A stretch of DNA of 64,000 nt from Amoebophrya sp. A120 (taxonomy: Eukaryota > Protista > Dinoflagellata), in the NCBI GenBank assembly GCA_905178155.1, contig CAJINV010000002.1, positions 9,001,412 to 9,065,411 on the forward strand. The letters run 5' to 3'. Below are positions 3,574 to 57,400 of this stretch, piece by piece. The notes below the pieces were generated by a model. The model saw nothing but the letters and a program-made list of their open reading frames with translations, had not been told where the DNA came from and searched no databases. Numbering within the stretch: position 1 is the stretch's first letter; every line of letters starts with the position of its first letter. The position numbers and the translations under genes are program-made.

Positions 3574-6500
3574 TCATGTGTAGATGTTTGGTTCGAGTTC
3601 TTGTCTCAGTTGTCTTACTAGTTCAGCAAGCGCTGCTAATTTCCTGTCCGCTTCACGGGGATTCCTATTCGCGTGATTCTCATCAGGCGGCTTGGCAAGA
3701 GCAGCGCGCTGCTCCGCTATCGCCTCCGAACTCTTACTTCTACCCTTATCTTTCTCCACCTTGAGATCCTGATGATGCAACAAATGCTCACGCACTTGTC
3801 TTCGTAACTCCGAAATCTCGGCTTCTATTGCAGTCAGCGCCGGCGACGAAAAGTTTTCTTCGGCGGAGTTCGTATCGCCATGCTTCGCTATTCGTTCCAA
3901 CGCCTGAAGTCTCCTCTCGACGTCGTTTATACTCGCGACCAGAGCTGGTGGGACGACCGGCAAAGTATTACCTAATGGCTGCTGATCAGCCGTCGAAAGA
4001 GGCCTCACGACTGGCGGATCGGCGGCAGCAGTAGCAGCAGTTTTCGTGTCTACTGCGTCGGACTCGCGATTTGATGTCGCTTCTTTGACCACTTCCGGTC
4101 CAGGATCACGCTTTATTTCGACTGGTGGTCGAGCTGGCAAATTGGCAGGCGCCACTTGCGTATTCCGGTCGTGGGGAAGTTTATTATCCTCGGGCCGATG
4201 CACCATTTGTGCTGGAAGCGGACCTTCTTCCGGTCTAGGGGACTGCAGATTGGATCTCTGCTGTTCCTGTGCGGCATGGGCTGCAAGCGGCGGGCTGGAG
4301 TGCTGCTCGGCAGTGCGGTTCACGACCTCCAGAAAGCTCGTTGATTCTTCCTCTGCACTGGTCGATTTTGCGCCCTTTGGTTCTGCGTTTTTCTTGTTCT
4401 GCTGCGGCTTTAACTTCGTCTTCACCACTTCGAGCTTTTTGAGGCTACAACCCTCACACGAGGCTTCCTCTTCGTCATCGTTTTCCGTCTCTCCGCCTTT
4501 CGTTTTTTTCTTCTTGCTGCAATTCTTACAGCCGCCGCCCTCGTCGTCGTCCGCATCGTCATCGGCGTCTTGCTTTCTCTTGCCTGCGTTTGCGTTGCCA
4601 TCAGTCTTCACCGCCGGCTGTTCTTCGAGTTGCTATCACCACCAAAAAACGCACTCCCCCATGATAACCCAGACCAAGTTGCATTTTCCTTTTTCAGTGC
4701 ATGCAAAAATTTCCCGGGAGTCACCATCATTTTCATATTTGGTTTGAAATAGCCCAATATACGGCGCATGATGAAACCACCTGAGCAAGGCACTTATCGC
4801 ACGATCCTACTAGCGCATGCATACGCGGCGGGCCTCGCGCTGGAAGTGCAGCAAAAGGAAAGCTACTCTCCGAGCAATAATTCGCCCTGCCTGTCATCTG
4901 TTCCTCCAAAAGTTCCTGCGGAAAGAAACCGAAACTAACTAATGAGCACTGAGAAGAATAAAGAAACTACTTGCTCGCAGTCGCAGGTCTTTCTGACGGG
5001 TTGCGCATTTTTAAATTGGATATCCTCACCTGCTGCTCGTGCTTCGCGGTTTCGTTCTCGACGAAGGAAGAGGAAGAGCGTCGTGTTGCAGGTTCTTCTT
5101 CCTTCTTCTCCGAGGAATTGCAAGCACAGTCACAGTTTTGTTTATCGCCTTCCGTTTTTTTCTTTTTGTCGTCCTCCCCCTGTTTCTTTTTCGTTGTCCC
5201 ACTGTCTCTGTCATCCGGCTCTGCACAATTCTCGCAGCCCTTGTTGTCCTCTTTTGGGTCTCCTGTTTCGTCATCGTCATCCTGCTTCGGCGTCTACTAT
5301 CAGAACCAAAAACGACCCGCCGCGCAGGTGACCTCAAAGCAACTTTCAAAATTTGACGAATGTTGAAAAATTTATCTACCAGGAGTCAGAACAAGTTCGG
5401 TTGTCGATTTCAATTATTGCATCAGAATTAACTCCTGCATCAGGTAGAGACAGGACGCCCACCTGAAGGCGGCGAATAAATATGACCCGCCCGCATATCC
5501 TCATAGAGGCGCAGCACGTTCCAGTTCCTCATATGCCCAATATCCGAAAGTGTTACATGAAAAAACGCAACAGTAGACTTTAGGGGAAAGGTGCTATGGG
5601 TCTCTGTGGTGGATTGAGCATTTTAGATTTTCATATCTTCGGCTTCGGCTGCTGCTCGTGCTTCGCCTTTTCGTTTTCTACAAAGGATGAAGAGCGTCTG
5701 CTTTCAGATTCTTCTTCCGCCTCGGAATTGCAAGGGCAGTCACAGTTTTTCTTTTCGTCTTTCGTTTTTTTCTTTTTGTCGTCCTCGACTATTTTTTTCT
5801 TCGTCCCGCTGTCCCTGTCGTCCGGCTCAGCGCAAGTCTTGCAACCGGCCTTCTCGTTCTCGCTCGACTCTGTTTTGTCGTCGTCCTGCGCGGGTTTCTG
5901 CTATCACAAAAAAAAGGCCCATCGCTCACACCACATAACAGTTAGATCAAGCGCATGCCATAATCTTCAAACCTAAAAAATTCGCCGTTCTCGTTTCCGC
6001 AGTTGCTCAGCAACGAGACGATCACGACATTGCCATCAAAAAATGCAACCTTGTCGTAGTACTATCTTCCAACGCAACAACAAGTGACGCTTTTACAAAA
6101 AAGGCGAATTAGCACGGCCTTGAATCACTTCTGTTTGCGGGAGCACTTCTTCGTTTTCTTTGTGATAGCTGGTTCGGCGCGCCGCTTTGGTTTGGTTTAT
6201 TGTTATTCTCCGCGCCCAGAAAAGAACTTGTGCTTTCCTCGCTCGTCTCCTGCTTACGCTTTTTCTTGGGCTGCCCCGCTGCCTGGCTTTTGGCGCCCTT
6301 TTTCTTGGGTTCGTTCTCGTCGTCCTTCTCTTCTTCAGTGCAGCTACAAGACCGCTTTTCACCGAGCGGCTTCCCCTTGTCATCCCAGTCGTCCTCGTCG
6401 TTGCAAGGACAAGCTTCTTTCTTTTTCTTTCCCTTGTTTTCTTCCTCATCCTCCTTCGCGGGTTTCATGCGACGATCCTTTTCGCCTGCGTATGGCACGG

Positions 6501-9209
6501 AAAAACTACACCAAACCCTGTTTCGTCTAAAACAATCTCTGAGCGTATTGCGCAAGCGCGCACGGCGCTAGAGAGAGGCACTCATTTCGGATTGGAGTGT
6601 ATGTGTATGTAGTACCAGATAGATGCCAATATACTTATTTCCTCGTTGATACATAATGAGCCCGTTGTCAGTTCTACCTTTTGGCTCAAGCATCATCATT
6701 TTCTCTTCGCCTGCGAATGCCGTCGCAGATCACGAAAACATACATACTGCAGTAGTGCCGGCATGCGGCAAAACAATTCGAGGTACTATGTTCGTAAAAA
6801 CCTCAAGAGACGCTACGAAAACGAAAAACGGCATGCTGAAAGTTTTCCTTCCCTAGGACTTTCTTTTTCCTCCCCACGTCGAGCTTTTTCCGCTGCCGGT
6901 CGCGCGCCACTCCCTCGTCCACAAATGAGTAGGGATTGTCTTCGTCGACTCGCGCATCCTGTTCCGGCGATGGTGTTGAAGCAGGACCACGACCCGCAGT
7001 AGCTACAATGCTATTTCCGACGGGTATGCGTATTCTATTCATCAGATGCCGCACTTTCTCAATGCTGACTACCGGTACCGCCGGCGAGGCGTCCGAAGGG
7101 CTCGGTTGAGTGGTGAGGCCGCCGCGCGTCTCCGTGGGTTCGGGTCGCATTCCGGCGGAGGCGCTGCTGGCATCCGCTGGTCGCGTGGCGGTCGGACTTG
7201 CAGTTGCTGCTGCAGGTTCGGTCTGGAGAAGGGACGCCTCCTTGGCTGGTGGGTGCGATACTGCGTTTCTCACCTCGGAGGTCGCTATCCTGGCATCGGC
7301 CGCGTCGTTTGCATGCGGTGGGACCGGTGACTCGGTTCGCGCCTCCGCTTCGCTCGCTTCCTTCTGTTCGCTTTGGCTAAGAACCTGCTCCTGCGAGGGC
7401 GACTGCTCCGAGACCGGCCGGGCAACTACCGGCTCGCCCCCTTCTAGCTTCCCAGCGTCGCTCCTAACTACCGGCGGGGGCTTTTCTGGAACCGGAGAAC
7501 CTACGGCATACGTGCCTTTGTTTTTCGCTGCCTGGCTTATATCGCTTACATCAGGTGATGGCTTTTCGTCTAAACCAGGTCGCGCGTCGGTGGCTTCGGT
7601 GCCTGCACTTCTAGCGGCGGTGGTCGTGCCTGCCGAAGCCGATGGAGGGGGTTTCTCTGGCGCAGGTGCCTCGACCGCGTTTTTCAAATCTTTGTCTTTC
7701 GCGACGGTGCTATCCGTTTGCAAATTCGGAGGACGCCCTCGGACAGATGCGTCTTCTGTCGCACCATCGTTGGCTTTATTATTTGCTCCACTAGAAGTAG
7801 CATCAGACAGTGGATCCGTCCGCTTATCAACATCTTCCGCCGCTTTATTATGTCCACCATTCGCCGCTGCCTCTGCCGCGTCTGACCCTCCTGAATCCTG
7901 CATATCGTCCGTTCGTCCGGACGCAGCTTCTTCTGCGCTCTCCGCGACGAGGGCGTTACTGTCAGGGTCGATCACTGGTGGCGGCTCGGGCTTTTTTAAG
8001 CCGTTGCCCACTAAGGTTGATTTCAATATTTTCTCGGTAGCCGGGTGCGAGGAACGGCTTTCTGGTGGCTGCTTGTCACCTCTGCTTTCGTAACCATCCG
8101 AAACACGACCAGGTTTCTTTATTCCGGCGTCTTGTTCGCTGGCAGCGGTTGGCGGCGGAACAGACGGGCGCTGCGTCTCCGACGTGCCCGTTTGTTCACT
8201 AGTTTGCTTTGCATTATCGTGTTCTGCAAGTAATCTATCCTCGCTTGGTAGCGTCCCAGCACGCTGCTTTACGGCATCGTCGGTCTTGTGCTCGTCTCGA
8301 CCAAGCGCCGTCTTTGCAGCCGCCTGGTCAACATCTCCCCGTGGTCCCGCGACTGGAATCTTACTGTCGCCCGCAACTGGTATTTTACTACCCCCAGCGA
8401 GTGGAAGTTTTTGTTGCTCCGGCGGATCTTCATGCAAAGTTGGCGACTCGTCCGCAGCCGCAGGTTGCGGCGCAGTTTCTGCCGGGTCGCCGTTCTTGTG
8501 CGTAGTCGCCACCGCAGAACCGGCGTCAGAAAGGGGCTTGTCTGTTGCGGCAGTACTAGTACCGCCACCAACTGCACTTGTGGTATCGGTTCCTGTTGTA
8601 GAGCCGCTAGTTTTTGTAGCAGACGCGGGTACGCTATCACCTGCGGTTGCAGAAGTACTATCCGGAGCCGGTTGTGTCTTATCCGAAAGAGCCGCGGTTG
8701 TCGGTGCAGTCTGTTCCGCGACCGTGCTAGCGTCCTTGTTGACCGCAACGGACGACACTCCTTCTGCGGGCGTCGCGTAGTCCGGCTTTTTGTTTGCATA
8801 CAGATGCAGCTCGTGCCTCTTGGCCATAAACTTGGTGTGGGAAGTGTCACGCTGAAAACGTTTCTCTTTGCGGAACCAAAAGCAGTGTGCTGGCAACAGT
8901 TGTTGTCGCTGCATACAAAACGGCTCATGCCAGTTCGCTACAAGTCACAAACTAAAAACAGCGCCCAGTTGAAAATACTTCTAGTCCGCCCACACCCGGC
9001 ACGACACCGCGACTAACTCTTGCGGCGCAAAGAGAAAACGTTTTCTTTTGTGGATACGAATTGAAAACCTTGGTGGTTTCGTATTTGAGTCCCATTCCGT
9101 ACACGAACGTGGCCGTCACCAGCGCAATGCCCACCAGGCCGAGAATGTGCACCCAGGAGGCGTTCTTCGGCACCGCCGGTTCCGGGTCCTCTTCGTCGGG
9201 CGTTGTCAT
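3574..9209 (-). CDS. Multi-exon, low-complexity hypothetical protein with an N-terminal TM/signal anchor and duplicated Cys/Lys/acid-rich exons
   Basis: Exon ~9209-9069 encodes MTTPDEED...WVHILGLVGIALVTATFVYGMGL and ends at AAG|GT. Long Ala/Pro/Ser/Thr-rich ORF ~8820-6860. Probable micro-exon 6710-6678. Further exons at ~6484-6120, ~5900-5640, ~5295-5030 and 4632-3574, each preceded by an AG acceptor. Several junctions unresolved. Confidence 0.6.
4330..6484 (-). repeat. Four tandemly duplicated exon units (CxxC/CxC, poly-K/E/D, SS-F-[LV]-E); the units at ~5030-5300 and ~5640-5905 are the closest pair
   Basis: GCENCAEPDDRDSGTTKKK...NCDCACNS...RRSSSSFVENETAKHEQQ versus GCKTCAEPDDRDSGTKKK...NCDCPCNS...RRSSSFVENEKAKHEQQ. 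Three of the units share the acceptor context tttt...tgatag. Confidence 0.8.
5330..5602. mobile_element. Degenerate MITE-like element inside an intron; related sequence at ~12995-13230
   Basis: Ends gacctcaaagcaactttc and (reverse complement) gacccatagcacctttc. Internal aactttcaaaatttgacgaa...ggagtc and ctcatatgcc recur at 13018-13066 and 13106-13115. Confidence 0.5.
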
Positions 9210-12200
9210 CCTGCTGTCGGACCGGGCGCCGCTGCTGCGGTTATTAGAAAGTACTAACTCAGAGTTTCTTTCAACTCTCCTTCGCTGCCACAAGTAGTTC
9301 AAATATTTCCACTGCGCAGACTTCACTGGACCGCAAGTTGCTCCCAAAAGAAAATTAAAACCCTCGGTGGCTTTCGCGCATGCAAAATCACGTTTGAGCA
9401 GGAAAGAAGGTCTGAAAAAGGCGCAGTCATGATCATTTTGGGGAGTGGGAGTGGTTAATTTGTTCGGAAGCATTATCTTATTGTACATAAAGGGGGCTTA
9501 GTTTTAATTTCGAAAAAATATTCTGAAACACACAGCCGGCGCAGGGATCCTGCGCACGCTGGTCGACGAGTCATGCTGAGAAGAAACGTATCAATCTCAA
9601 TGGGGAATTGCTACTTTCTTGGGGGAATTTCTGTGCGTGTCAAAATTGAAGAGAGGATTTGAAACGAACAACATCAGACGGAAGATTTACGCGCGACTAC
9701 AAACCGGAATACGATACCATCTACTTACGGAGCGCACGATAACCGAAACTAGGACGAAGCTACTGGCTGCCAAATCACGAAAGTGTAGAGCACTTTTGCA
9801 CGACAAAGAGTGACAGAACGGGCGATACAAAGTTGCACGCTTGCGAATGTTAACGTCATCGCATCAACCGAAACTCACGATGATAGATTATTGTACGAGA
9901 GGCACAACCGAAAGTGCTCAGAATATCTGTAGACAGCTTCGTCGTGGCGCCGCGAAGCAGGTACGACGACGCGCACCGACAGTTGCAACCAATTCTACAT
10001 TTAAAGAATGCCAGAAACAGGTGCCACACGAAGACACTAGTGCATAACAACCGACCTGGAGAAGATTCGCATTTCAAGAAACATAGCGAACGAACAACCG
10101 GAACTTTGACGGACGCCCGGACGATATTGGTACGCCGTGCAATCTCGTCTCACAAAGAAAAAGAATCGCAGCGCGCAGGACGGCCTTGCACGCGCCAGCA
10201 ATCAATACATGCTTTCACCTGGGCAATCGTCGAAAACTACCTTACTGGTAGTATGACAACCTAAAGAAAATTTCTTTTTACAGCATAGTGTACTTACTAC
10301 AAAGATCACAAGCTACAGAAAAGCTTACCCGTTCTTTTTTTCCGCGCGCCGAGGCGGGAATTTTGCGGGCGAGTTTGCCTCTATCCGGCCCGGGAAAAAG
10401 AGGCTCCCGGGTACCCAGAAGCATTATTGTACTTAAACCTGCGACGAATCCTCCGTGCCTTTTGTAAGTAGTAAACATACATACATACACGCTCCACGCG
10501 GCTCTGCGAGAGGTTTGTGGTGCTCTAAATTTGATCCTGTCTCCCGGAAAGTGATCCACCCAACGTAGTACGGGCGAGCAAGGGCGTGAAGGAACCCTCT
10601 GCGTTCGTGATGTGGACGAACGTCGCAAGAGGTGAACAAGGATCCTGGAGGGGCCTGGGCCGCCCTTTGCTGGGGGGGGCGACTTAGAGCGCACCGGCGA
10701 GCTCTATATCCATGCTCCTGATGGCCGCATCAATGCGTCTTCGCTACGAGCGTCGTGTTGATTGATTTTGCCACGATCTTTCAATGTCGGCGGCGGGCTA
10801 CGAGCCTTGTGCCGCGTTCATCGTGCATCCTGCATTCTAGCGGATGCTACTGCTCCATCTCTCCGCAGACAGAGAGAGGAGGGGGGGAATCTACTACGAG
10901 CAGGCCCCCCGATGCCAGGGCAGCCTCTACGGCAGCAACCCGGAGGGCAGACGCGGACGCACGGGAAAGGCGCAGGGCCCAGCCCTGCAAGGGCATTGCA
11001 TGCGTCCACGCGCGTAAGTAAGAGCAATGTGGGGCGCAGCCCAATCCTCCGGAAGCGGGCCCATGGCTTTCTGGTGCTTGCTAGGTGGCAGGGAGGCGCA
11101 TGGCAGTCGCGGGCCTTCGTGTCTTGCACATCTTTGCGCGCTCGCTGCGTGGCCCTGTATTGGCGTCTCGTTGTCGTATGCTCCGGGGCTGCACACGCAA
11201 CCGATCGGATGCGACGGGCATGCCACAGGGGAGGCTACAGGGGCGTGGGCAATGTTTTTAGACGCTGAAGGCGGCGCGCGATGGTCTAGCTGCGAGCTAG
11301 ACCTGCTGCGACGAGCGTTCCACGGACCGAACTAGGCGAGATGCTCCACAGGCCTCGCGTAGCTGAGGCGGATACATTGTCTCACTCTGAGCGCGTTGCC
11401 AGTCGGTCCTGGCATCTGCTGGGTCCTAAAGACAGACCAAGCACTTTTGTGCTCCGAGCACATGGGCTCCCTTCCCTACAAGGGCGGGATGTAAGTAGTA
11501 AACGAATAAGCGTGCGTGACTCCTACAAAGGTAAACGAAACCGAAGATCCAAGAAGCTATTCCCGAGTGAGAATCTACAAGCGTTTTCGGGGGTCTACAA
11601 ATCCGAAAAGCCCGAAGCACCAGCCCCGGCGATACCGCGGCAGCATCGCCGAAAATCGGCGACGCTCAGAGGTGCTCTGCATGTTCGGTCCGGCCCCGAC
11701 ATTGACAATCCGGGCTCCTTTTGTTATGCACTGCTGCGCCCCACTTCTGGAAACGCCACGGTAGCGCTGCGCCTTCCAGAATAGCGCTTCGTGTGAGAGC
11801 TTCGGCCGCGCCCAAACCCAGCGAACCGCCTCAGCAAGCCGGCCCTTCGGGAATTCTGTCGCGGGGCCAATCGTGTGCGAGCGGTGGACGAGTTCGGGGC
11901 GACCGGCGGGGAAGGGCACAGCTTTTCGCTAAGCAGTGCCCTCGCCCCGGAAGCTCAGGCCCGCCCGCGGCACTTTCGGAAGGTATGCACCAGGCAGTCG
12001 AGGCGGATTCGACGGGCATCCGCCGGCGGAAGCCATAAACTCCAAGCACTGCCCCACACGCAGCGCCGCAAGAGACGCTCCCCGGCCTCCTCGCCCGACG
12101 GGAAGAGGGTCCGAAGCCCCACCAAGGCGGCGCCTCCACCCCCCCTCCTCTTGGAGGGCGGTCGACCCACGCTGCTTCGGAATCCAGTGCCTATAGGGCG

Positions 12201-13592: not shown

Positions 13593-14463
13593 TGTAATCC
13601 ATTCCCGTCATCTACAGTTCGGTACACCTAGTGCGGCAGCACCATCCGGAATGTCAGAAAACCCGACTAGCGTGGCCTACTCGACCTCGCGGCCTCCCCC
13701 AGGCCAGGCTTCGCAATCTTCGGGGGCGGGAGGCGTTTCGCATCAGCAGTGGCATCACAAAGCCGACGGGGCGGCTCCATGCAAAGTTTCTGCATGTCCC
13801 AAAAGTGCGTGCCTGGTTCCGCGGGTTTTGGAAGGTATGTCTTTGGTGCGATTTCCATTGTTCAGCATCGGTGGACTTTCGCGGGCACCCTATTTATTAC
13901 TAGCTAAGATTTGGAATCTTCGGCCTTTGGGAAGGAGAGGTTGTCGCGCTTCCGGAGAGGCATTGCCCTTTCATGCTATTTCGCTGCGGATTCTAGCGTA
14001 TGGTAAACGCGACGCCCGACGCGGGCGGAGCCACCGGGTTCTTGGACTTTGCGACAGTTGTGCCATGTGTCCCCACGACGTGGCTGCTCTCGCCAGCAAG
14101 AAAGAAGACCGCGCAGCCCGAGGAGAATAGGGCGTCGCGCCTCTATTGTTGCCCGGACCCCCACGGTCCGCCACTGCCCCGGGCGGTTATTGCGTACAAG
14201 CAGAAAACCCCGCGCTGCCGCTTTGCGTCTTTCTAGTCGCGCGCCCACCCCTGCGCACGCGGTCATATGAGATCATTTGCTTACTGAGCGCACGACGTGA
14301 TGCAAAATCGAGCGAGGTGGAGAGGAGGGGACAGCACGAGGAGCCACAACCCTGAGGCAAGCTGCCGCCGCACAGCGCCTCCACCATTGCGTCACGTGCT
14401 TAAGCATTGCATTCTCCTCCCTCCAGTCGTTCTTTCCCGCCGCAGCGGCGCGTGCTATCAAAA

Positions 14464-17400
14464 ATGGAGCAGCGAGGCGGCTCCAGCGGCTCGACCAAGA
14501 TGTCGGAGCAGTCTCGCGACCGGGCGAAAACGTTCTCGGGACTGCACCTTCAGATACCGAACACCGCGGGGCATGCGGACGAGGCGATAAACGAGGAGCT
14601 CCGGCGGGAAAACTCCATCACGATGACGCCGGGCGGCCTGAAGTCCGCAACGCTGTGGCCCTGGGCCCAGCGGAACCACGCGCGGCGGTCCTCCGTGATG
14701 CGGGTGCCACCCTCCGAGCAGCCAAGCGCACACGTCGCGGGCAGCGGGGGCGGGGAGGCCGGAATGATTCCGCCCGGCCCCGACGCGTACTGCTCGACCG
14801 AGCAGATCCGGATGACCGCAGCGTCGCAGTCGCCGACGCCGCATCTCGACGACCGCTCCGGGGGGTCCGGGGGCAGCCCCGCGCCCAGCGTCAGCACGAC
14901 CCGGTTGAACGGCAACGTTCCCGGGCCTGCGAGCACCACCGCGACGAGGGTCGGGAAGCCGAATTTTTTTCAGCAGGGGGTGCAGAAGAAAACGAGCCTG
15001 AGTAAGCTGGAGCGCGGGTGGGATCCACGCCGAGCCCTCTTCACGCCGTTCACGCGCGACGAGCACGCGGAGCACTACAAGTGGCAAGACCGTCTGATCC
15101 CCCGCGATTCTCCGTTCTGCCAGAGTAAGGGAAATCTCGACGTCGAGCGCCAGATACCAGGGTATAATGAACGCGGGAGTATTGAATGATGTTGCGAAAA
15201 AGTCAAGCAGAGCTAAGCGTCAGTCATGCAAAAGTAGTGGGGTGCTGGCGCGAAAGCGCGTGTTGTGCAGCTTTGAGAGTAAAACCATATGCAAGGAGAA
15301 CAGGCTCGCACTTCCGCGCATCGGACAAGACAAGAACTTTTGATTTTTTTCAGCAGGTCTTGTGCTACGTATACTCCACCAAAAAAATCGGTTGACTAAA
15401 AACAACTCCAGGTACCTTGGATCGTCGCTCCGTTCGCTGTACTACCAAAATCTGTTCCACTCCATCCTGGACTTCCGCATGCGCACGCACGTGCTGATCG
15501 TGAGCTCGACGTACACGCTGTTCTGGGTGGTCGTCGCGTTCTTGCTGATTCTCGTCGAGGAAGACTGCAACATGCGGCTCGGCGGGAGCTTCATCAAGGC
15601 CTACATTATCGCGGTGGAAACCTGCATGACGATCTATTACAGTGAAAAGTGCCCCCCACCCCCAAAGTTGCAAAAATTTGTGATGCGAAGTTTCCAAATG
15701 AAAACTTTTTGTCATGCATGAAAGGAGTATGAATCTTTCTGATGCAGAGTCTAGTCGTGTTTCGCATCGCTTGCATGACAAGCACCGCTCTTGCTGGGAT
15801 CTTTTGCAATACAAATTTTTGCTATTCACGAGCGGAAATCTGTGATGCTGATACATACATTCGTTTGGAAAGGTTTGCAATACAAATGCTTTCAAGTTCG
15901 GGGGTGGGGGCATTTTTCACTGTCATACGATCGGGTACGGCATGCACGACGAAACGTTCAACGGCTGCTGGTATGGATTGCAAAAGTGTCTGGGTCTAGA
16001 AACTTGTGATGCTGGTTAGCGTATCATGAGCAAGCGATAAGTGCTGGCTCAGCATGACAAGTTTCTGAGCTTTTAGGTGTTGCCTATTCTGCATGACAAA
16101 CTGCGTTTTTGCATGACAGAAAAATGGGGCTCTTGGGTAACGTGCATGACAGATTTAAGAGTCATGCCAGACAAGCATGACAAACGTGCACTCTTCCAGA
16201 CCCAGACATTTTTTCATTTGATAGCTGGCAGATGGCGGTCATCCTCTCCGCGGCCAGTTTGATCTCCATGATCCTGGACGGCATCTATCGTGAGTAAAAA
16301 TGAGAGTCTGGTTGTCCTCGCGCAACTTCTGGCAAATCAGAGCCTTATTTTGCTGTTTGATTTGCATGAAAAACAGATCGAGTATAATGAAGAGTTCAAC
16401 AAATGACCGAGTCGCATGTCTTTCGTGTCGCAGTACAAGACGTGGATTTTCCTCACAATAATGTCCTGATCGGACTAATTTTCATGACGCTAACGAATCC
16501 GCAGAGGCGCGCGGCCACTGTCGTGTTCACTGACAAAGCCATCATAAAGCTCATAGACGGAGAGCCACACTTCGTTTTCCAGGTAAGGGGTGTTGCGATG
16601 CAAAGTGATTTTCAATGCTGAAGTGTGGAAGATTGTCGTGATCGAACTATTTCACAATGTGTCGACCGCGATGAAAAAACCCAAGAAATTCTACTGTACA
16701 GGTAGCAGAAATACGGAAGCAGTCCCTCCTCGAGGCACACATTTTATCAAAGTGAAAGGCCGTCGCTGTCAATGTTGGCTGTGTCATTCTGCATGATTCG
16801 CCCGCACGGCAAAACTCGATACGCATAATTCCAACTCCTGCCATATGGCAGCACGCGGTAGTACCGCTATCACATTTGTTATTCGTTCCCCCGCCTGCCA
16901 TTGACAAAAGTTTTCCGCACAATTCGTTCGCTGCTACTGTTTCAAGCACTGCGACGTGATCAACCCGCTGACCGGGCAGAAATCCAAATCCCGGGTGCTG
17001 CAGCAGTTTCCCATGCGACTGCAGTCTCCGGACGACGAGTTAGGGGGCATGCTGTTTCTGAGCACGCCCTTGCTGGTCGTGCACCGGATCGATGAGTGGA
17101 GTCCGCTGTACCGCCTGTACGAACGAGCCACCCACTGCGGCGTTCCGGACGGCACGGAGGCGGAGCACGTCCGCATGGATTCCTCCAGCTTTGACCAACC
17201 GGAGCGCGGCGGCGGCGCGCTGAGTCGGACCAACAGCGGCCTGCAGCAGGTCCTGTCGCCCAGTCAGAGCAGCCTCATAACCGGGAAGCGCGGGCGGTCG
17301 CAGGTGCTGGCGGTGCAGCACTCCGGGGTGTTTGACGACGTCGATAACTTACCGACGGGAGCGACAGCGAACAAGAGTAGCACGACACCGCTGTACGGAG

Positions 17401-19604
17401 CGCCGCAAAACAAGAATCTGCTTGGTGGTGTTCTTGACATTGATAGCGCAGGTGCAAGAATAAACGCAGTTGGAACCACGATGAACAGCAGCAGTTCTTC
17501 TGCAAGAAGCCCTACGGGAGGAGCGGTTGCCGCAGCGGGAGGCGGGAGCAGCAGTTCCGCGTTGGATCAAACTACAGTGCCTAACGACCTCCCGGACAAC
17601 ACCAGTACGAAGACCAAGTCGGGCAGTACGGTCATCAAATCCGCCGCGGGCCTAAAATCCCCTTCCCCCACGGCGCGGAACGCCTCGAAAAGCCGGCTGG
17701 ACGCGGAGTTTCAGGTGCGGTTTCAGGACTCCCGTGGGTTTACCTACTACCCGGAGCCCGGCGCGAGTGTTTATTCCGAGCACTTGAATAACGAGCGCGA
17801 CTTTTTCGGCAGCCCGACGGAGCGCGAGCCCACGACGATTTTCTGCGCCGGAGACAATCACGCACAGTACCGGCGCATGATCGGCGTGCCCAACCACCGG
17901 TCCATTCACGGCATGACCGCGTCCGGCGACAGCAAACATCCCAAGCAGTTCACGCGCAACGCCGACCGGCAGAGCAGCGGCGTCTTCGGGGAGCCGCAAG
18001 ACCCGGAAAACAGCGGCGGGCAGTCGGCAGTCGATAGAACCGCGAGTCAGCAGGAGGGGCGGGTTTCAACAGCGCAGGCTGATGCGGCTGGCGTTCCGGG
18101 CGAACAAGCAGGCAACTACAACATTGGGAAAGATTCGACAGCAGTGGAGACGAGAATATCAAAACATCAAAGCCAGGACGACACCCCGCCGCCCGCAGTT
18201 CTGAACAATGCGTCGGGCGTATTTCCTGAAACGTCGAGGCCTAGTCGGGTCGACGCCGGTAGAGCCAGCGCGTCGTCCCTGTCACTTGGACCAGCAGAAC
18301 AAAATGGAGCACAATTACCCCACGCCCTCGGTGCCAGCTCCCCCAGCCCCGGATCGTCGGCCAGCAACGCAGACCCGTCGTCGACCCGGGACAGCAAAGC
18401 GCGTAACCGATTGTCCTCCACGTCAACAGCGATTGCAGGTTTGACACTGACCGACCCGATCAAGACATCTCCGCGCGTGTCCGGCAGCGGTACGGGGTTC
18501 GGCGCAGCCAGCTACTTGACCAGCCTGCTGGCGGGCGGCGGAGTGACGTCCAAGGAAATGATGACGGCACAGGAGGAGGAGGGTCCCACCTACGTCGGAA
18601 AAAAGTCCTCGATTGCCGCAGCAGTGGGAAGGACGAAAGACTTGTCTGCGGTCTCGCAAAGTAAGAACGGCGGTGCACCACCAGCTGGGGACTTACTGCA
18701 AGTGAACGATCCCAGCAGGACATCAGCGACAGGAAAAATAGTAAGCGAGCATTTGGAGAAACCAGAAGAAGAGAGCGCTGACCTATTCAATGTTATCTGT
18801 GACGTCGTCGCTACGCAGGCTGGCAGTTCCGAGGCCGGCGCACCACAGAACGGAAACTCTAATACCAGAGAGCAGAGGTTGTACAACTTCGCTCACGAAC
18901 AGGTTTCCACCCAACTGTGCGCCCGGCGCGACTACGTGGCGCCGCCTCTGCGGATGGTCGACGCGGAGCGGGGCATGTTCACGCTCTACGCCTGCCCGTA
19001 CTGCGGTGAAAGTTACGTCACCAAGTGGCTCTATCGGAAGCATCTCGTGCACAATCGCGGACACGGTAGCAGATTTGATGTGAAGCGGGGTTGGATAGCT
19101 AGAAGTCGCAGACAGTTCGTTGCTTGCCCCTTCGCATGACAAGTTTCCAAATTGTAGCATATACGAAATGTAGTTCTTTTTGGATGACCGCTAGTTACGC
19201 GACAAAAACAAACAGGCGACCACCCCGCGGAGCTACCGAAGTGGACGAAACAGATGGAGAACGAGAAAAAGTTCGGCTACAACCTTTACCAGGAAAATTC
19301 CAAACGGCTCGAGCACTGGGACGCGCGCAAGCGCAGCCAGCCGGTCAACCTTCTCAGCCAGGACTACTTCGAGGTTTTGATTTTGGTGGAGGGTATCGAG
19401 CCCTTCACTTCCACCACGGTGCAGGCACGGCATTCCTACGCGTTTGGACAGGACATCGTCATCAACGGGGACTTCATGCCGTGCACCTTTTTGAAACAGG
19501 ACGGCACCGCCATCGTGGACTTCGGGAAATTTCACCAGGTCGTGCAGTCCAGCGAGGACCACTTTTTCGCGGCGAAGGAAGAAGTGAACATTCCGCTGGA
19601 GTAG
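14464..19604 (+). CDS. Inward-rectifier potassium channel (Kir/IRK family), ~1233 aa; exons 14464-15161, 15412-15634, 15933-15971, 16229-16285, 16466-16582, 16702-16743, 16929-19065, 19216-19604
   Basis: Reassembled motifs: M1 YTLFWVVVAFLL; pore AVETCMTIGYG; M2 SMILDGILIGLIF; NPQRRAATVVFTDKAII; VAEIRKQSLLEAHIR; PLLVVHRIDEWSPLY; FEVLILVEGIEPFTSTTVQARHSY; VDFGKFH. Exon lengths sum to 3702 nt (in frame). Three GT-AG introns and four TIR-type introns. Confidence 0.92.
15635..15927 (+). mobile_element. Introner-like TIR element A (non-canonical intron) splitting the K+ filter TI|GYG
   Basis: Left TIR tattacagtgaaaagtgccccccacccccaaagttg; right TIR (rc) tatgacagtgaaaaatgcccccacccccgaacttg. DR CGATC at 15630-15634 and 15928-15932. 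No register of the precise excision gives GT-AG. Confidence 0.93.
15972..16223 (+). mobile_element. Introner-like TIR element B
   Basis: TIRs tatggattgcaaaagtgtctgggtctagaa and (rc) tatcaaatgaaaaaatgtctgggtctggaa. DR GCTGG/GCTGG. Removal gives NGCW|QMAVIL. Contains repeated gcatgaca. Confidence 0.88.
16286..16460 (+). mobile_element. Introner-like TIR element C in the M2 helix
   Basis: TIRs tatcgtgagtaaaa and (rc) tattgtgaggaaaa. Degenerate DR GCATC/ATGTC. Removing 180 nt gives ILDGI|LIGLIF, colinear with the Kir2 M2 segment IIDAFIIG/IIDSFMIG. Confidence 0.75.
16745..16924 (+). mobile_element. Degenerate introner-like element D
   Basis: Starts tat; right end (rc) aattgtgcggaaaac resembles element C. 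DR CATTT/CGTTC. Removing 185 nt gives LLEAHI|RCYCF (Kir consensus EAHVR). No in-frame GT-AG option found. Confidence 0.65.
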
Positions 19605-20784
19605 CGGGGGGGAAGGAGGTGCCACTGATGCACTTGCATTTCGGTTTTTATGTAGCTGAAGTTCGGGCACTAGATCGTCCGCAAAAGATCTTTTTTTGAA
19701 GCGCGACGACGAGAAAATTTTTCGCCTGTGATGTTTCTTTCGCGAAATGACGATGCTTGTATGTACTTTGCGCGACATCAAAGATTTGCGATCGGCAAGC
19801 TTGTGCAGGAACGATAAAATATTAGCAGAGTCGACGCCTCTCGAGCTCTTTTCTACGGACAAAATGTTGAAAGACCCGCAAACTTCGTATACTCTGAGAC
19901 CCATTCAATTTGACGGCTTCCTACGACCCATGTTTTTAGCTGAGTTTTACTTTTCTTGTCAGAATGTCTATTTTGGATGAAGAAATAAAACATTTAGAAG
20001 TAACCGGTAAAATCACTCGCTTTTCCCATCGTGCATGGTTTCTTGCTGTTTGGTGGAAGGAGAACGGCCTGTAGTTGTTTGAATTTTTGTTGAAAGTTAG
20101 GGATGTCTTGAAATGCGGTCGGAGTTCTGTCAGTCCCGTGTACAACTTTTCCGAAGTAAGAACCAGTGAAGCAGTCGTGCAGTCTAGTAGGCTTGCATAT
20201 TTTTTGAATGAAATTTTTTATGAGTAGAGTTACTCAAGAGCCTGTGGCGGGGACGCATTGGCCTCTTCGGTACTAGGACCGAGGTGGTTGATGTTTCTGC
20301 CTGGGCAAAGGAGTTGTCGCACTAGTCATCCGAAGCACGCGCTTCGTTCGCGATTTCCCGTGCAGGTGCAAAGAAACTGCAAAGAATAGGATGCATGAAA
20401 AATACTACAGAAAAATATTTTAATGAACCCAGTCTTTTGGTACCGGATGCGGAGGAGAAGCAGCTCGCAGTCCAACATTTCCACTACCTCGGAGGAAGAC
20501 GTGTACTGGAAGGGTCGGCTTCTTGTGCACGCTTTGCCAGTGTTCATGTGTTCGATATGCTCACCAGCACACCCGCGCGTTTTTGATCATGGTCCAACCA
20601 GCTATCCACCCGCCTCGCTTTTTTGCAGACAGGCGAACGATGACAATATCGCCTCGTGGGTCGTACATTAGATAGAAGTAGAACTACAAAGAGCTGGCTC
20701 GCTATACGAGCGTGCCACCGCGCCGCGAGCAACTGAAGGTTAGAATAAGAGGGCCCGAGAAAAAGAATCTCACTTCGGAACAAC

Positions 20785-23723
20785 ATGTCGCATCTCCGTT
20801 CGTTTGCTTCCTTCTTCAACCTGCTCGGCGCGAGCCAATGGAAGTCTGCAGCTGCTATGCCTGTGATTTGCAACGGACCGGGATCCACCGGGTACCGGGA
20901 TCTGAAGAAAAGCAGTTCCGACGCGGAGCAAGAGTACTTCCACCGCGCGCCCCTGCTTGCGAGCAATGCGTTCGAGCAGGAGGCGCGGTCCTTCGTCAAC
21001 CAGGAATTCGTTCGACGAGGAGTGCGTTCGTCCACAGCCGGTGAGGAACAAATTCCCGAATTCTGCACGCCGACCTTTGGAGGGCAGGAACTAGGCAGCG
21101 AAGCGGATGGCTTCATGGGTACGAATCCCGACGAGGAGTTGGACCCCGAGGAAAACCACCCACCGATGGTGCTGGCCGGCGAGGCGAATTCGCACAGGGC
21201 CCGCGCTGCCCACCCGCTGCTGGGCTGCGCGCGCCGCAACCAGCGTGCGCTGAAGTTTCTCGGCGTCGCAACAGCGGTTGCCGGCGCAATTTCCGGACTT
21301 CTTGGCCCAAATATGATCGGCACGACGGGCGGCACGAATAGTCAGTTTGCAGCAAGAACTGCGGGACAGGAACCGTGTGACCTCAAGTCTTCCTCAGCCG
21401 GACGTAGTAAAGCCTTCTTGCAGCCGGCGGATCACAACGCCGCCTCTGCCGCACCTTCCGTTGTTGACAAAGACGGCAATTTGATTGCTTTCTCGCAGGA
21501 CTTGCCGTCGCCCAAAGGATTTGACTCCTCGGGCGACCACACCTACGAGAACCTGATAAGGTCCGGGAAGGCGCAGGTCTTGGAGCTGGTGGAAAAGAAA
21601 CCAAAAATCACGTACCGCACGGCGGAAGAGACGGAGGCATTGGCGAAGAGGGAAGCTGCGAAGAAGGCCGCAAAGGACAAGGACGACACCGTCCCGCCGT
21701 TCGTGAATCTGAATCTGGTCACCGTGGAGCGCAAGCCGGCGGGCGCAGCAACTACGCGACAGGCGGTTTCGGACGTGAAAAAAGACATTGCGCAAGCGTT
21801 CGCAGCAGCAGAACCAGCAAAGAGCGCAGCTGAGGACAGTACTGAAGCTAATGCCAGTTCATCTTCGTCTGTCGCTAAGCAAGAGAAAGCTTTCCTCAAC
21901 GCGGAGGCACATACCCTCGCCAGCGCGCTCACGGATGGCGTCGAGAATCTTTTCAAGGACTCCTCGTCCTCGGGAAAGTTGAAAGTAGAGATGGAAGACG
22001 GCCAGACGTTCAAGTACGAAACTGGGAATATGAAAGGCAAAAGTACACAAGAAGATTCTTCGTCCGATGAAACAACCTCATCACAACCAGTCGCTTCACC
22101 AACAACCTCGGCGCCGCAAAAAAACCACCTGCGGCCGGACGAGGTTCTGATCGAGGGAAAGAAGTACCTCACCGTGCATTTGCCAGCGCTGGACGAGGCA
22201 GAAACGGAAACCGGTCATGCGGAGGAAGATTTGACACCAGATGAAGGCAGGCCAAAAGCAGAGATCGGCTCTCTCGCCCCCTTGCGCGACATCACGGACG
22301 CGGACAGGTTCATTCAGATGTCAAACCTGCCTCCGACGTTCATTGCCGGCCCAGAACCGACGGTAGGACATCAAGAGGTCCCAAACCCAACCGAAGCAGT
22401 GCGTCGTTCCGACTTCTTGAATCCCACCCAGAGATTCGTGCTGGATCTACAACGCAAGAAGCGGCTGCTCGCGCACGTGGTCACGCCCGGAAACGCGATG
22501 CAACAACGGTACGCCACGCCCGAGCAGGTGAAGCAGGCCATGACCAAGGCGGACCCGCTGAGCTACATCGAGTTCGATTCGCAGGACGTTATGGTGCTGC
22601 CCGACACGCCGGACAACGGTTTTGTTTCCATGTCGGCGTCATTGGTGCTCCCGAAATCCGACCCGCTCGACGACGGTATGCCGTTCTACTCCGCGCCGTT
22701 CGTTTGTCCTTTGGGAGAAAGTACTACACCGTTCGCGGCCGCGGATAACCGCTTCACTGACAGTTTCCCCGTAGGTGGAGGACCGCAAGCAGCGGGTATG
22801 AGTACCACGCCGGAGGAGATCAACATTCAAACCTTGATTTACGGGAAAACCCAACCCGAGCTGCCATTGTCGACCGCGCAAGCGAACACCGAAGCCGCAA
22901 TTGTCGAAAAACAACACCCCTACTACATGCAGTACTTCGACGCGGACCAGTGCGACGTGCTCGTCACATCGAACGGCGATTTCGGTAGCACGGTATGCAT
23001 TGCAAGTGTAAACTTCGCACTAGCTTGAATCGCATATAGAAATGTTTCAAGAAGAAAGTTGGAATTTGTCGTGCAGATATTGGTGGTAAAGGGAAACCAG
23101 ATTTGGCATGTATGAGTGCGATTTCAGTAAATACAAGCGCGATACTTACATTTTGCAGTGGATACATGGGAATCGCCAGCAACGCGCTGCGCTACTCGAA
23201 GAACGCGGCGGACCGGGCGCATTGGCTGGAAGAGTTGTTGGCGAAGAGAATTATCAATCCCCTGGATAGCCGCTTCGCCGTTACGATGACCGAGGCGGGC
23301 AGGAACGCGCTTTTCAACGCGAAAGACAGTTTGACGCCAGACGAGCGGAGCCGCGCGATCAGCTACTTCCGAAACCTGCGCGGCCCGCCGACGCAGCAGC
23401 AGATGCTGGACCTCCTGGAGCCGATCCCCGGCGAGTTGACCGAGGTGATCGCGAACTGCCCGTTGAAAGCGCTGGTAGGCGTCGCGGACCCGCTCCAGGT
23501 GATGCCGAAAGTGAACCAGGACCGCGTGGTCAAGGCCAAGATGAACAATCTGGCCTTGAACATGGATGATTTCTTCTCGCTGAACGTGCCCTGCACGATC
23601 CAGAAGCCGTCCATGACCGAGGGTATCGTGACGCAAAATTTACCGGCGCTGCGCGAGGTCGATGGGGAGAATGAAGGGAGTGCAGCAGGGGCGAGTGGGA
23701 CAGGAGCATTTGCGGCCGTGTAA
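20785..23723 (+). CDS. Hypothetical protein, ~920 aa, one predicted TM segment; exons 20785-22993 and 23170-23723
   Basis: The 747-aa and 206-aa ORFs join in frame (FGSTG|IASNAL) once element E is removed. Hydrophobic segment LKFLGVATAVAGAISGLLG. No family recognised. Confidence 0.75.
22994..23164 (+). mobile_element. Introner-like TIR element E
   Basis: TIRs tatgcattgcaagtgtaa and (rc) tatccactgcaaaatgtaa. DR CACGG/CATGG. The obvious GT(22993)-AG(23158) splice is out of frame, whereas the 176-nt precise excision is in frame. Confidence 0.82.
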
Positions 23724-24548: not shown

Positions 24549-25891
24549 ATGTCGACCCCCATCTCGACTACGAGTACCTCGGATCCCACCCTGACTCTCG
24601 AGTCTTTCCCTTCGCATTTTACCACATTTCTACTCACCTACACAACCCCCTTCGATCTCATTCTTGCAACTATTTTTCTGTGTTTTTCGCTGTACAAATT
24701 TGGCGCGCACCGGCAGAACTTTCTCGCCACAGCCACCCTGATCGCCGCGTACCTGGGTCGGAAAGCGATCTTACCCGCAACGAACCTGGACGGATGGGAT
24801 CCCGGAAATGATACCGTCGGGCCGGGCATCTACGGGGGGAAGGTGCTGTATGACGAGAAGAACAACATTGTTTACGGGAAGCAGTACCAAAACCACAACC
24901 CCTTCGTCGACGGACCGGTTTACGAGGGCAAAGGGGCGGGCTATTCCTTTATGAACTCCCTGTTGCGTGCGTTTGATGTGGATGGCTTGGAAACCGCACT
25001 GGAGAGAGACCCAGGCCTGTCTTTGGAAATCTCCACCGGCGGCGCGACGCCGCTACACTTCGCCGGCATGATCCGGATACCAAACAATAACGCCGCGAAA
25101 AACGCAACGGGCAAAGGACCGCGGGGTTCTGACGGCAGCAGGAGCGTCGGTGAGACAATTCCCAGCAGCGAGAACGCGTTTTATGAAGAGAAGATGCGGA
25201 AAATGGTGAAAAGCTTGCTGCAAGCGTGCCTTCTTCACATTACAGAAGAACAGAACAAACAAAAATCTGCTAGTAAGGCAAGAGGAGGCGGAACATCTTC
25301 CACTACTGTATCCTTATCTCCAGTGGACGCCTGCATCAACAAAAACATCGACCTATGGGGCTACACGCCGCTGCACCGCGCGGCTGGGAACGAGGCAGTG
25401 GCAGTTTTGCAGGAGCTAGTTGCCTATGAATGGCAAAAATGTCCGGGTCTGGGAGGTTTGGAAACTTGGCATGCTATCATGTCGATGGCGTCCTGCCTTC
25501 AATACACACCAGCACATGCGCACAACAAGTGTTTGTGCTGCCATGCGGTGCAGGGAATTTTCATTTTGCATGAGAGATTGCTGCTTTGCATTACAAAAAA
25601 GCTGAGAGGCCTTTGCGCAACATGCGTGACAGAATGGACGCATTTGCCTGCCGAGCATTACAAGTTTTCACTTTTCCAGACCAAGACATGTGTGCATGGC
25701 ATATCGCTGTCGAAAGTGTTGATTTGAACGTCATGTCGACTGGCGTCTACAACCTGTACGGCGGTCCAGAAACACCTTTGGAGACTGCAAGAAGAGAAAG
25801 CGCGGTAGTCGCAACGAGATTTTTGGAAGAGATTATGGAGAAAACGGAAGGGGAAAGTTCGAAAGCGACTCCTACAGACGCGAATAGATGA
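24549..25891 (+). CDS. Ankyrin-repeat protein with an N-terminal hydrophobic segment, ~352 aa; exons 24549-25424 and 25709-25891
   Basis: Ankyrin motifs GGATPLHFAG, WGYTPLHRAAGN and ETPLETAR. The third repeat joins in frame (QELVA|VESVDLN) only after element F is removed. Confidence 0.85.
25425..25703 (+). mobile_element. Introner-like TIR element F, related to element B
   Basis: TIRs tatgaatggcaaaaatgtccgggtctggga and (rc) tatgccatgcacacatgtcttggtctggaa, sharing the tgtc(t/c)gggtct core with element B. DR TTGCC/TCGCT. CATG-rich interior. Confidence 0.85.
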
Positions 25892-54400: not shown

Positions 54401-57400
54401 GGCCGTGACGACCACCAACCAGCGGGAGGACGCGTACCCGCGGTTCTCCGACCCCATCTCCGTCGTGATCGGGCGCGCCCCGAGCCAGATGGACGCGCCG
54501 GTGGAGATCCCGGACACCCGGACCGCGACCGGTTTAGGGGTGCGCTGGACGAAGCCGACGGACGTGGGCGGGCAGGTGCTGACCAAGTACCGGCTGTTCC
54601 GCGACGACGGGATCAGCGGAAATCCGACCATTCTCGTCGCGGAGACCGACGTTTTCACGCTGGAATTCACCGTGACGGGCCTAACGCCCGGCGCGCGGTT
54701 TTCCTTCGGGGTGACGGCGGAGAACGCGGCGGGAGTGTCCGTCATGTCGCCGCTGTTGACCACCTTTGCGGGCCAAGGACCGGAGATGCTGGTCGCCCCC
54801 AGCCGGGACACGTCGATCCGCACCTCGGGGGTGCAGATCAATCTGAAGTGGGTGGCGGCGGATATCCGGAAGTCGAACAAGCCGGTGCTGTACTCTAAAA
54901 CGCTGAATTAGCGGCAAAGCCGGTAATCCCTGTGAATTCCAAAAGCCCATGACTCTCGTGCATCAACGCCCGCCGCCCGTGCTTCAAAATCTTGGAGCAG
55001 AACTACTTTGCAAATTTGGCACCCGTGCCTTGCTTCGCTTTGTCCAAATGCAGCAAACCTGTTACGCTGCTCGTCGCCGCGGGCCTGGCTTACCTAACTT
55101 GCCTGCCCCAGGTGACAAGTCTGAAACGCAGCCACCTCAGCGCACAGTCTTCGTAGAGCAGGCGGCCGCGCCCAGGCGTCCGCTGGTGCGCCCCTCGGCG
55201 CCGACGTTTTGTCACAGAGTGAGGCCCCAGACACTCCGTTAACAAGACCTCGGGGTACCCAGAGGTTCTGTTTATCGCGAGCTGTTTTTGCATTTTTGGG
55301 TCTGCAGCCAAAAATCCAAAAACAGCTCGCGATAAACACGACCTCTGGGTACTCATAGGTCTGGTTAACGGAGTGGCGCAGGGTCCATTCCTGGACACAA
55401 CGTCGGCCTGGGTGACGGGGATACTGAATCTACTTAGCACGACCTTTGGCCATGCAAAGGTCATGTTAAGCGGTTTTTTTTTCCCGGCATACTCAGGGAG
55501 TCCGCGACTCAGGGGGTACTCATTTGCCTTTGCGCTCCTGTGTCCCTATTCACGGGTCAGCAGAACTTCGAGCCTGTTTGCAATATTAGCGTCCGCCCTG
55601 AATCCCGATTCAGGATTCTAGGGATCGCTTATCGCTGAGAAATCGCGTTAAATGTTGGGCGGGAGATAGTGGAAAGTTGGATTCTCACAGAGTGGCCGGG
55701 TTTGCCGCTTATTCCCGTACTCAGAGTACTACAAGCTGCTCCGCGACGACGGGAACTTCGGCGACTTCGTCGAGGTGGGCACGACGACCTTCTTGAACGA
55801 AACCATTGGCTCGCTCCGCAACTCGCTCTACTACCGGTTCGTCGTTCAGGCCTACAACGAGGTCGGGTGGGGCCCTTTTTCGCCCGTGTTCCGGTCGCAG
55901 GTCTGCGGGCAGCCGCAGCACCCGGATTCCTTCTACTTCGCGGAGTACTACGACAACGGTGTTTTGCTGCGGTTCACCAAACCGACCGACGGGGGCTGCG
56001 ACACGCCGACGCTGACGAAGTACGAGATCTACCAGAACCACCTGACCTCGGGGAACAACGTGTACGAAAAGATTTACGAGGGCGAGCCGACGGACCTGTT
56101 TGCGAACGCCACGAACTTGAACGCGAATGAGCAGTACCAATTTCAAATCCGCGTGTCGAATTTTGACCAGTCCAGCGACGTCTGGCCGGACAATCTAGTC
56201 CTGCTCGTCGGGGCGGTGCCGCGGAAACCGAACAACCTCTTCTTTCTCTCCGCCCCCACCGCGACCTCCTTGCAAATCGGCTGGGTGGCGCCCGTGTCGA
56301 AGATCCCGATTTTGCAGTACAGGATCTACTTCGACAACGCGGTGGACGGAGCGATTGACACGGTCGTGGAAACCGTCGATGGGTCCGTCTTGAACATCAC
56401 CAAAGCGGGGTTAACGGCAGGCGCGAAGTACCGGTTCCAAATCCAGGCGAGGAACCAGAACGGCTGGGGAGAACGGTCCGGCGTTACGGAGTTCTACGCG
56501 TCGCTGTCCCCGCGCGCCCCGAACTCGGTCAGCTACTACAACAGCACGATCGGACAAGTGTACGTGCAGTGGGAGCAGCCGGTTTTGTACAGCACAAACG
56601 ACGCGCCGTTTTCCAGCTACAACATCTTTTGGGGCAATTTGGACACGGACGGAACAACGGTTTTGCTGGCGGAACAGTCGTACTCCACCAACGCGGCGAC
56701 GAGGTACACGACGCCACCGATTTCGCAAATGTCGTCCCTTTTGAACAGCAACTTCACTTCGGGAACGTTGTTGCACTTCCGGGTCCAAGCGTGCACAATC
56801 AACACGTGCGGGCCCTTCACCGACACGCTGACTCTGGTGGCCGCCGGTCTGCCGAAGCAGCCGGATGCGCCTTCCGTGGTGAGTTTTGCCGGGAAAACGG
56901 TGAGCGAGATCGGCGTGCCGCTGTCCTGGGCGCCGTACAGCACGCTGAGCGAGTCGGGTGCGGAAGCGTACTTGTTCGCGATCTACTCCAGTACGAACGT
57001 GTTGAACCAGGACGACGAGAGCAGTTACACGCTGCACGGATACACGGAATCAAACTCTGCGAACTACAACTTCACCTGTGTCCAGGACGAGCACTACTTC
57101 GTCAAGGTAGCCGCAATCAACGGCGCGGGCGGGAACTACTCGGCGGAAACCAGTTCGGCGTTGTACAAGCAGAATCTCGGCCCGTTCTCCCACCCGCTAC
57201 TGATCGTCTGCACGGACCGGCCGGAGACGCCCGCCGCACCGTCCATGTTGACAACGCAAACCAGCATCTCCGTCGTGTTGTTCGAGCCGAACGTGACACA
57301 GTTGAAAAACGCAACACATGTTGGTTGGGAATTGGAAATTGAGGATCTCGACGATGGTTTAACGAAAAAGTGCGTATTCACCTACTCGGACGTGGTGCAC

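Follow-up and report, generated by a model that had tools for sequence, protein, structure and literature searches.

An introner within the selectivity filter codons of an Amoebophrya sp. A120 Kir channel gene and its exact removal from the transcript

The selectivity filter codons of an inward-rectifier K+ channel (Kir) gene of Amoebophrya sp. A120 are split by a 293-bp insert, and 298 nt are missing from the transcripts at the same place. Our reading is that an A120 introner lies in a Kir gene that is expressed, and that its exact removal takes one copy of its target-site duplication with it, likely through a modified major spliceosome (rough probability of the reading as a whole, 0.9). That the insert is a known A120 introner spliced at the RNA level is, taken by itself, nearly certain. 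Diverged duplications of eight neighbouring elements further suggest a fixed cut register, one or two bases before the element, a side result that appears to be new against the open-access literature. The window analysed here is a 64,000-nt stretch of A120 DNA, and all positions, including those of Table 1, refer to it.

The hexamer ACGATC occurs at 15629-15634 and again at 15927-15932, spaced by 298 nt, and the element between the repeats, which starts with TAT and finishes with ATA, separates TI from GYG in the filter. The true duplication at 15630 is the 5-bp CGATC, the length also seen in related copies; the sixth identical base belongs to the element, whose terminal A happens to match. 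The element is GC-poor (GC 0.42). At 18 of its first 20 nt the element is complementary to its opposite end, its arms are ~80% alike along 69 nt, and its predicted fold (-123.4 kcal/mol, z = -10.1) was equalled in stability by 0 of 100 shuffles. The unspliced frame reads ETCMTIYYSEK past the filter and meets a stop at 15719, whereas removal of 298 nt gives ETCMTIGYG. The initial annotation had described the flanks and the insert between TI and GYG, both readings of the frame and seven equivalent splice registers (AC-AT, CG-TA, GA-AC, AT-CG, TC-GA, CT-AT and TA-TC), and the sequence agrees with it throughout. U2-type GT/GC-AG ends were absent from all seven registers, which lowers the case for a canonical U2 intron, not for an intron spliced like one. 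None of nine GT/GC-AG pairs examined around the filter site restored the TIGYG junction in frame, and Rfam models (self-splicing and other Rfam RNAs) gave no match to 15500-16950 at E up to 1.

Table 1. Positions of the Kir gene, its inserts and the neighbouring introner-derived introns
Feature	Position	Strand	Details and basis
Kir (inward-rectifier K+ channel) gene	14464..19605	+	8 exons, 1233 aa; CAD7935531.1 / GSA120T00010366001
Kir exons 1-4 (one of equivalent registers)	14464-15161, 15412-15634, 15933-15971, 16229-16285	+	sequence and contig pieces
Kir exons 5-8 (one of equivalent registers)	16466-16582, 16702-16743, 16929-19065, 19216-19605	+	sequence and contig pieces
Canonical GT-AG introns of Kir	15162..15411, 16583-16701, 19066-19215	+	donors GTATAA, GTAAGG, GTAGCA
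Target-site duplication, 5' copy CGATC	15630..15634	+	family duplication length 5
Introner/MITE-like element, 293 bp, TAT...ATA	15635..15927	+	arms ~15635-15702 / ~15860-15927; genome-repeated
Target-site duplication, 3' copy CGATC	15928..15932	+	sequence
Probable true filter intron, register -1, CT..AT	15634..15931	+	298-nt length from RNA; register inferred from neighbours
Alternative filter intron, register -2, TC..GA	15633-15930	+	neighbours
Second Kir introner, 252 bp, duplication GCTGG, identical copies	15972..16223	+	high-copy family; removed as 257 nt
Third Kir introner, aged, duplication GCATC/ATGTC	16286..16460	+	RNA joint 16283>16464, 2 letters fit either side
Fourth Kir introner, aged, duplication CATTT/CGTTC	16745..16924	+	RNA joint 16741>16927, 2 letters fit either side
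Five introner-derived introns of CAD7935529.1, diverged duplications	4630..9057	-	annotated protein
Register -1 for the CAD7935529.1 introns	9057-8841, 6856-6487, 6168-5898, 5636-5294, 5023-4630	-	annotated protein
Introner-derived intron in gene 20785-23723, duplication CACGG/CATGG	22993..23168	+	annotated protein allows -2..0

The Kir gene model was built before the protein search, in which an exon query matched a public 1233-aa A120 protein at 100% identity along the query; model and protein are identical letter for letter. Three of its seven introns are GT-AG and four are non-canonical. Pfam IRK (PF01007) and IRK_C (PF17655) matched on single exons, with only the last exon passing the curated cut-off, and 59 PDB sequences matched the protein (best E 1.8e-23). 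The alignment to Kir channels spans the pore helix, the TIGYG filter, M2 and the cytoplasmic domain. With the IRK and IRK_C domains and a TxGYG filter present the protein was classed as a Kir channel, its K+ current being a prediction. The TIGYG filter had been called essentially invariant among Kir channels; it is conserved, but the wording was slightly too strong, the best PDB match reading TVGYG. The filter of Kir6 is TIGFG.

Compared with Kir2, Kir3, Kir6 and KirBac the A120 protein has a long N-terminus and, within the cytoplasmic domain, a ~690-aa insert with a C2H2-like motif. The insert (residues ~460-1150; 16929-19065, + strand) is of low complexity and carries the C2H2-like zinc finger at its end, an unusual architecture in which the finger is conserved in the AT5 orthologue. 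The orthologue is conserved with the A120 protein on both sides of the non-canonical introns. Its own gene model has an unbroken TIGY and then lacks M2, which is probably a gene-model error, and the model was set aside as evidence on intron position.

The alignments covered seven of ten runs, X1-X5, X8 and X9. Removal of the insert was followed in four sets of contigs, X1-X4, whose RNA status was guessed from their behaviour: they skip GT-AG introns and have zero depth in bins 4400-9911, as expected of RNA. The joint 15628>15927, which skips 298 nt and where 6 letters fit either side, was present in 4/4 of these runs. Each run has six joints within 15160-16927 (99% likeness), and the pieces flanking the 298-nt skip carry no other letters. 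Although the letters between the two sides of this joint are marked as not known, the coordinates of the record give 15927-15966 room for its 40 nt and no more, and the predicted span of the contig, 3787 nt, equals the observed 3787 nt. The initial annotation had predicted, for a functional gene, a nucleotide-precise excision independent of GT-AG, and the skip in all four runs, with a spliced protein equal to the public model, bore this out. It had also named two contrary outcomes, cDNA without the joined sequence and an unexpressed pseudogene; instead the joint and spliced Kir transcripts were found in every one of the four, with a frame of 1233 codons free of stops. X1-X4 are contigs from one sample of one study, in which rare imprecise or retained forms are invisible, and they may be the data underlying the annotation, so that transcript joints and protein-model match are not independent. 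Two raw RNA runs under the same species label contributed little: X8 matched only a 32-nt end of the second Kir element, and X9 matched nothing. The 89 X8 reads fall exclusively on 16192-16223 and come nearly all from one other locus, which suggests a retained or exonic family copy in a related culture.

Farhat 2021 reported 66,565 RNA-supported A120 introns, 65% of them non-canonical (PMC7789003, Table S4), and 29,850 repeated introns in 1,954 families (PMC7789003). The inverted repeat (IR) of A120 introners, 8-20 nt long or more, is given there as a TAT start, seven less-conserved nt and at least three As, with direct repeats of 3-5 nt at the borders (PMC7789003). The filter element fits this motif (TATTACAGTGAAAA), and CGATC lies on both of its sides. 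It is also repeated in the genome: variant columns at 15667-15799 are carried by up to 36 contigs of the run X5 at 92% identity or more. Thousands of short X5 contigs pile onto the first two Kir elements, which indicates large repeat families. Terminal inverted repeats (TIRs), the 5-bp repeat, a constant duplication length and the lack of coding content agree with a MITE/TIR DNA transposon. The filter intron thus has every testable defining feature of the A120 introners and is already known as a type.

Related copies were collected from metagenome contigs. The flagged element is 70% identical along 304 nt to one of them (L050), and the TIR of the second Kir element was found at no fewer than 157 loci. 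Among the loci listed, 128 elements had both ends and flanks; copies were up to 92% identical to the second Kir element of the window, and 104 of the 128 had a perfect 5-bp duplication. A duplication length of 5 gave a mean identity of 0.91, lengths of 2-4 and 6-9 one of 0.24-0.31. Such duplications in related copies, with the large families seen in the DNA-like run, uphold the initial call of an introner-type insertion. We kept 118 of the 128 (at least 3/5 duplication matches, full flanks), and 85 of the 118 could be oriented by a codon model. Among these matches neither G at intron position +1 (28/85, p 0.55) nor AG at the 3' end (7/85, p 0.51) was in excess, and both orientations occurred (52 and 33), giving no sign of a pull towards canonical sites. 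G was weakly in excess at duplication position 1 (35/85 of the listed matches, p 0.024, one of six tests). In the same listed set, stop codons excluded no register in 14 diverged duplications, and the seven variable TIR bases showed no more pairing with their own partner than with shuffled ones (5.02 vs 4.96, sd 0.08). The second element's family and the 70% relative of the flagged element are dense in another assembly (contigs JACKZZ01...); if that assembly is a different strain, A120 families would be less strain-specific than published. The Kir orthologue locus was sought in the metagenome contigs and not found, hence no empty site was seen.

The filter intron cannot itself report its cut register, because its two repeats are identical. 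Neighbouring elements with diverged duplications can. Eleven elements of the window were considered; two have identical copies and are uninformative, 25425-25703 was omitted, and eight are informative, two through RNA contigs and six through transcript-built gene models. RNA across the third Kir introner keeps the 5' duplication copy at positions 1-3, which places the intron start at -2..0 relative to TAT, and across the fourth it allows -3..-1, excluding a cut directly at TAT. The five introns of CAD7935529.1 allow -4..0, -2/-1, -4..-1, -3..0 and -2/-1; this minus-strand gene (3577-9488) has no cover in X1-X4, and its junctions come from the annotation alone. All eight informative introns permit -2 and -1, whereas 0 is excluded by four and -3 or lower also by four. 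With independent, uniform random cuts 10,260 of 1,119,744 combinations share any register (P ~0.009). This null is simple, and three decayed element ends were placed by eye. A register fixed at -1 or -2 is quite probable. No fixed register was found in the open-access literature, in which the Fig. 3 legend of PMC7789003 calls the splice position at introner borders variable or unknown; subscription papers and figures S19-S25 of PMC7789003 may bear on the point.

Register -1 specifically is a reasonable though less secure choice; we infer it over -2, which fits the nucleotide-level data equally well. It yields N|UAU, with U at +2 and A at +3, which is a GUA donor lacking only the G, and we prefer it because the three GT-AG donors of the Kir gene also have U+2/A+3. 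The tabulated ends of A120 introns may carry an aligner bias towards GT-like donors. Nine of the top nine non-canonical ends listed for A120 have T at +2, and the top nine of A25, whose IR starts with TTA, all begin with TT (PMC7789003, Table S4). The layout of direct repeat plus IR (DR+IR) is reported for 15% of canonical A120 introns vs 1% in A25 (PMC7789003). Register -1 would account for this difference, since the TTA start of A25 cannot give GT at offset 0. An argument from AT drift in favour of -1 over -2 was dropped, as a hand tally of positions 1-3 revealed no such drift.

The element probably arrived by DNA transposition, as its TIR, 5-bp duplication and many copies suggest; no autonomous transposase is reported as found in A120 (PMC7789003). 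We propose that each duplication copy would be cut after base 4; the intron would then open with N-U-A-U, and its last base would lie four positions beyond the closing ATA. The U+2 and A+3 of a GUA-type donor would come from the terminal TAT, and distance from the terminal hairpin, rather than AG, would define the 3' site, a relaxed major spliceosome acting with the hairpin as its ruler. Nearly all spliceosomal proteins and the U2, U4, U5 and U6 RNAs are reported from A120, and U1 snRNA is reported as not found (PMC7789003). We lean slightly towards spliceosomal chemistry, against which count the lack of canonical pull, the missing U1 and the splicing of aged copies with weak hairpins. More tentative, and in our view just short of an even chance, is the general rule that tens of thousands of 'motif-less' A120 introns are cut at one register, after base 4, by a U1-less spliceosome that keeps U+2/A+3, dispenses with G+1 and AG and measures the 3' site from the stem.

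The same exact removal from RNA could be the work of a spliceosome-independent nuclease and ligase, or of a second splicing machine reading the hairpin, as proposed for euglenids. Such a machine is a serious possibility, though a doubtful one. It would explain why no preference for G+1 or AG was seen and both orientations are tolerated among the 85 oriented copies in the matches listed, and it would suit a genome from which U1 is reported missing (PMC7789003). Euglenid nonconventional introns, which also have TIRs and repeats resembling target-site duplications, are released as circles without a lariat (PMC11282704), and a nuclease that measures distance could account equally well for cuts at a constant 1 nt ahead of the stem and 4 nt beyond it. 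Against such a machine count the U+2/A+3 of the gene's own GT-AG donors, which register -1 reproduces, and the DR+IR layout in 15% of canonical A120 introns vs 1% in A25 (PMC7789003; the reading of these figures is ours). For the two aged Kir introns the predicted fold was no more stable than that of shuffles (z -0.8 and -0.2), and yet both are spliced exactly; a strong hairpin is thus not required, which also speaks against a machine that reads it.

The joint 15628>15927 might instead be a template-switch artefact of reverse transcriptase, the mRNA really keeping the element. Hairpins flanked by a direct repeat are the classic setting for such artefacts, at the filter site a 6-nt direct repeat borders a strong hairpin (z -10), and the RNA data are cDNA-derived contigs. 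The same contig, however, also leaves out two aged elements whose repeats have only 2 nt in common and whose hairpins are not significant, and each skip restores the Kir frame; retention would put the stop at 15719 inside the pore, and the AT5 orthologue is conserved on either side of the Kir introns. We consider this explanation very improbable.

Even less probable is excision from DNA in the style of ciliate internal eliminated sequences (IES). The TA start, the TIR bounds and the footprint-free removal of a transposon-derived element resemble IES excision. The run X5 behaves as DNA, with an even depth of 43-48 over introns and spacers outside repeats, and one X5 contig runs unbroken from 13800 to 15659, across the exon-element junction, at a single-copy depth of 48. 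The 298-nt skip was absent from the 15 X5 joints listed (of 49), in contigs that drop rare variants and in which low-level excision could escape notice. A dead Kir pseudogene or an assembly artefact has a negligible probability: the protein is odd in its split cytoplasmic domain, but spliced transcripts occur in 4/4 runs with an open 1233-codon frame, the AT5 orthologue has the same split layout, and DNA contigs of X5 enter the Kir elements from both flanks.

Several other features of the window were recorded. Although the 5' TAT of the decayed element 6855-6491 (- strand) has become TAG, the annotated protein still implies a cut at -1/-2, which fits a need for the T and A only. At 4634-6167 (- strand) three introners lie at near-matching places in repeated Lys/Asp/Cys-rich units of CAD7935529.1, and all three have G after ATA. 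The omitted element 25425-25703 (+ strand; TAT...ATA, duplication TTGCC/TCGCT) is 69% like the second Kir element along 137 nt. A simple scan for TAT...ATA (12/20 matches) gave 44 hits vs 91-110 in local shuffles and served only as a candidate list, not as evidence. At 55200-55407, a hairpin with 100-nt arms (81% complementary) occupies part of the 760 nt that separate two very long frames rich in repeats, 34908-54911 (6667 aa) and 55670-62413 (2247 aa). The two frames have the appearance of a single giant gene broken by an insertion. Inside the hairpin is a TAT...ATA palindrome with inverted, not direct, flanks. At 10171-11490, RNA-like contigs carry a few variant letters and have loose ends in common at 10475 and at 11489-11490, a pattern that suggests transcription from a multi-copy element of ~1 kb.

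The filter intron had been put forward as a good reporter. It could score spliced against unspliced RNA, but its identical repeats hide the real cut position, and introns with diverged duplications (5023-4630, 6856-6487, 16285-16464 and 16744-16928) are better suited; the copies of the first two differ synonymously at duplication position 4. We know of no transfection system for Amoebophrya, which limits the minigene approach. A special standing for this intron was not borne out: non-GT-AG introns are the published norm in A120, the Kir gene has three more, and the public model already removes this one. It is a neat illustration and no new biology, exact removal independent of GT-AG being required of ~43,000 RNA-supported non-canonical A120 introns (PMC7789003). 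A fixed cut position, if true, would turn 'no splice motif' into a rule of an N|UA donor and an acceptor at stem + 4, which is open to a genome-wide test on genome and RNA data already available and would tell lariat or circle experiments which ends to seek. If the one-register rule holds, an inverted-repeat element could insert at any site and whichever way round, a channel filter included, and would function as an intron straight away; in A25 the same N-U-A donor would arise from the TTA start at offset 0.

The closest known system is the A120 introners of Farhat 2021, with which the filter intron shares the genome, the IR motif, the border direct repeat, the hairpin and the repeated family (PMC7789003). 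Its length of 298 nt is similar to the 240-nt mean of A120 non-canonical introns, its non-GT-AG ends are likewise RNA-supported, and nothing in the published description differs in kind (PMC7789003); where that description gives a variable or unknown splice position, our data point to a register fixed at -1/-2 and to a duplication of strictly 5 bp. Gozashti 2025 assigned A120 introners to TIR and retro classes, diverse and sometimes tens per gene (PMC12130899), and their splicing mechanism is still described as open (PMC7789003, PMC11282704). Recruitment of splice sites from target-site duplications was reported by Gozashti 2022 (PMC9860276). The MITE-derived introners of Micromonas and Aureococcus (Huff 2016) likewise have TIRs and target-site duplications, become introns upon insertion with mRNA length unchanged, and recruit splice sites partly from the duplication, as here, but they keep canonical G(Y)-AG-type ends (PMC9860276, PMC7789003), whereas A120 needs neither G+1 nor AG. 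Introns of Fritillaria borealis (Henriet 2019) are also MITE-derived, with TIRs, target-site duplications and non-canonical ends, and their removal by an adapted spliceosome is reported; AG-AC/AG-AT ends dominate there and the exonic target is TAC (PMC11282704), whereas the A120 target sequence is nearly free. Euglenid nonconventional introns share the end-joining terminal stem, the repeats like target-site duplications and the lack of GT-AG; they are excised as circles, and their stem pairs +4..+6 with -8..-6 and has CAG/CTG (PMC11282704), whereas the A120 stem would run from +2 to -5.
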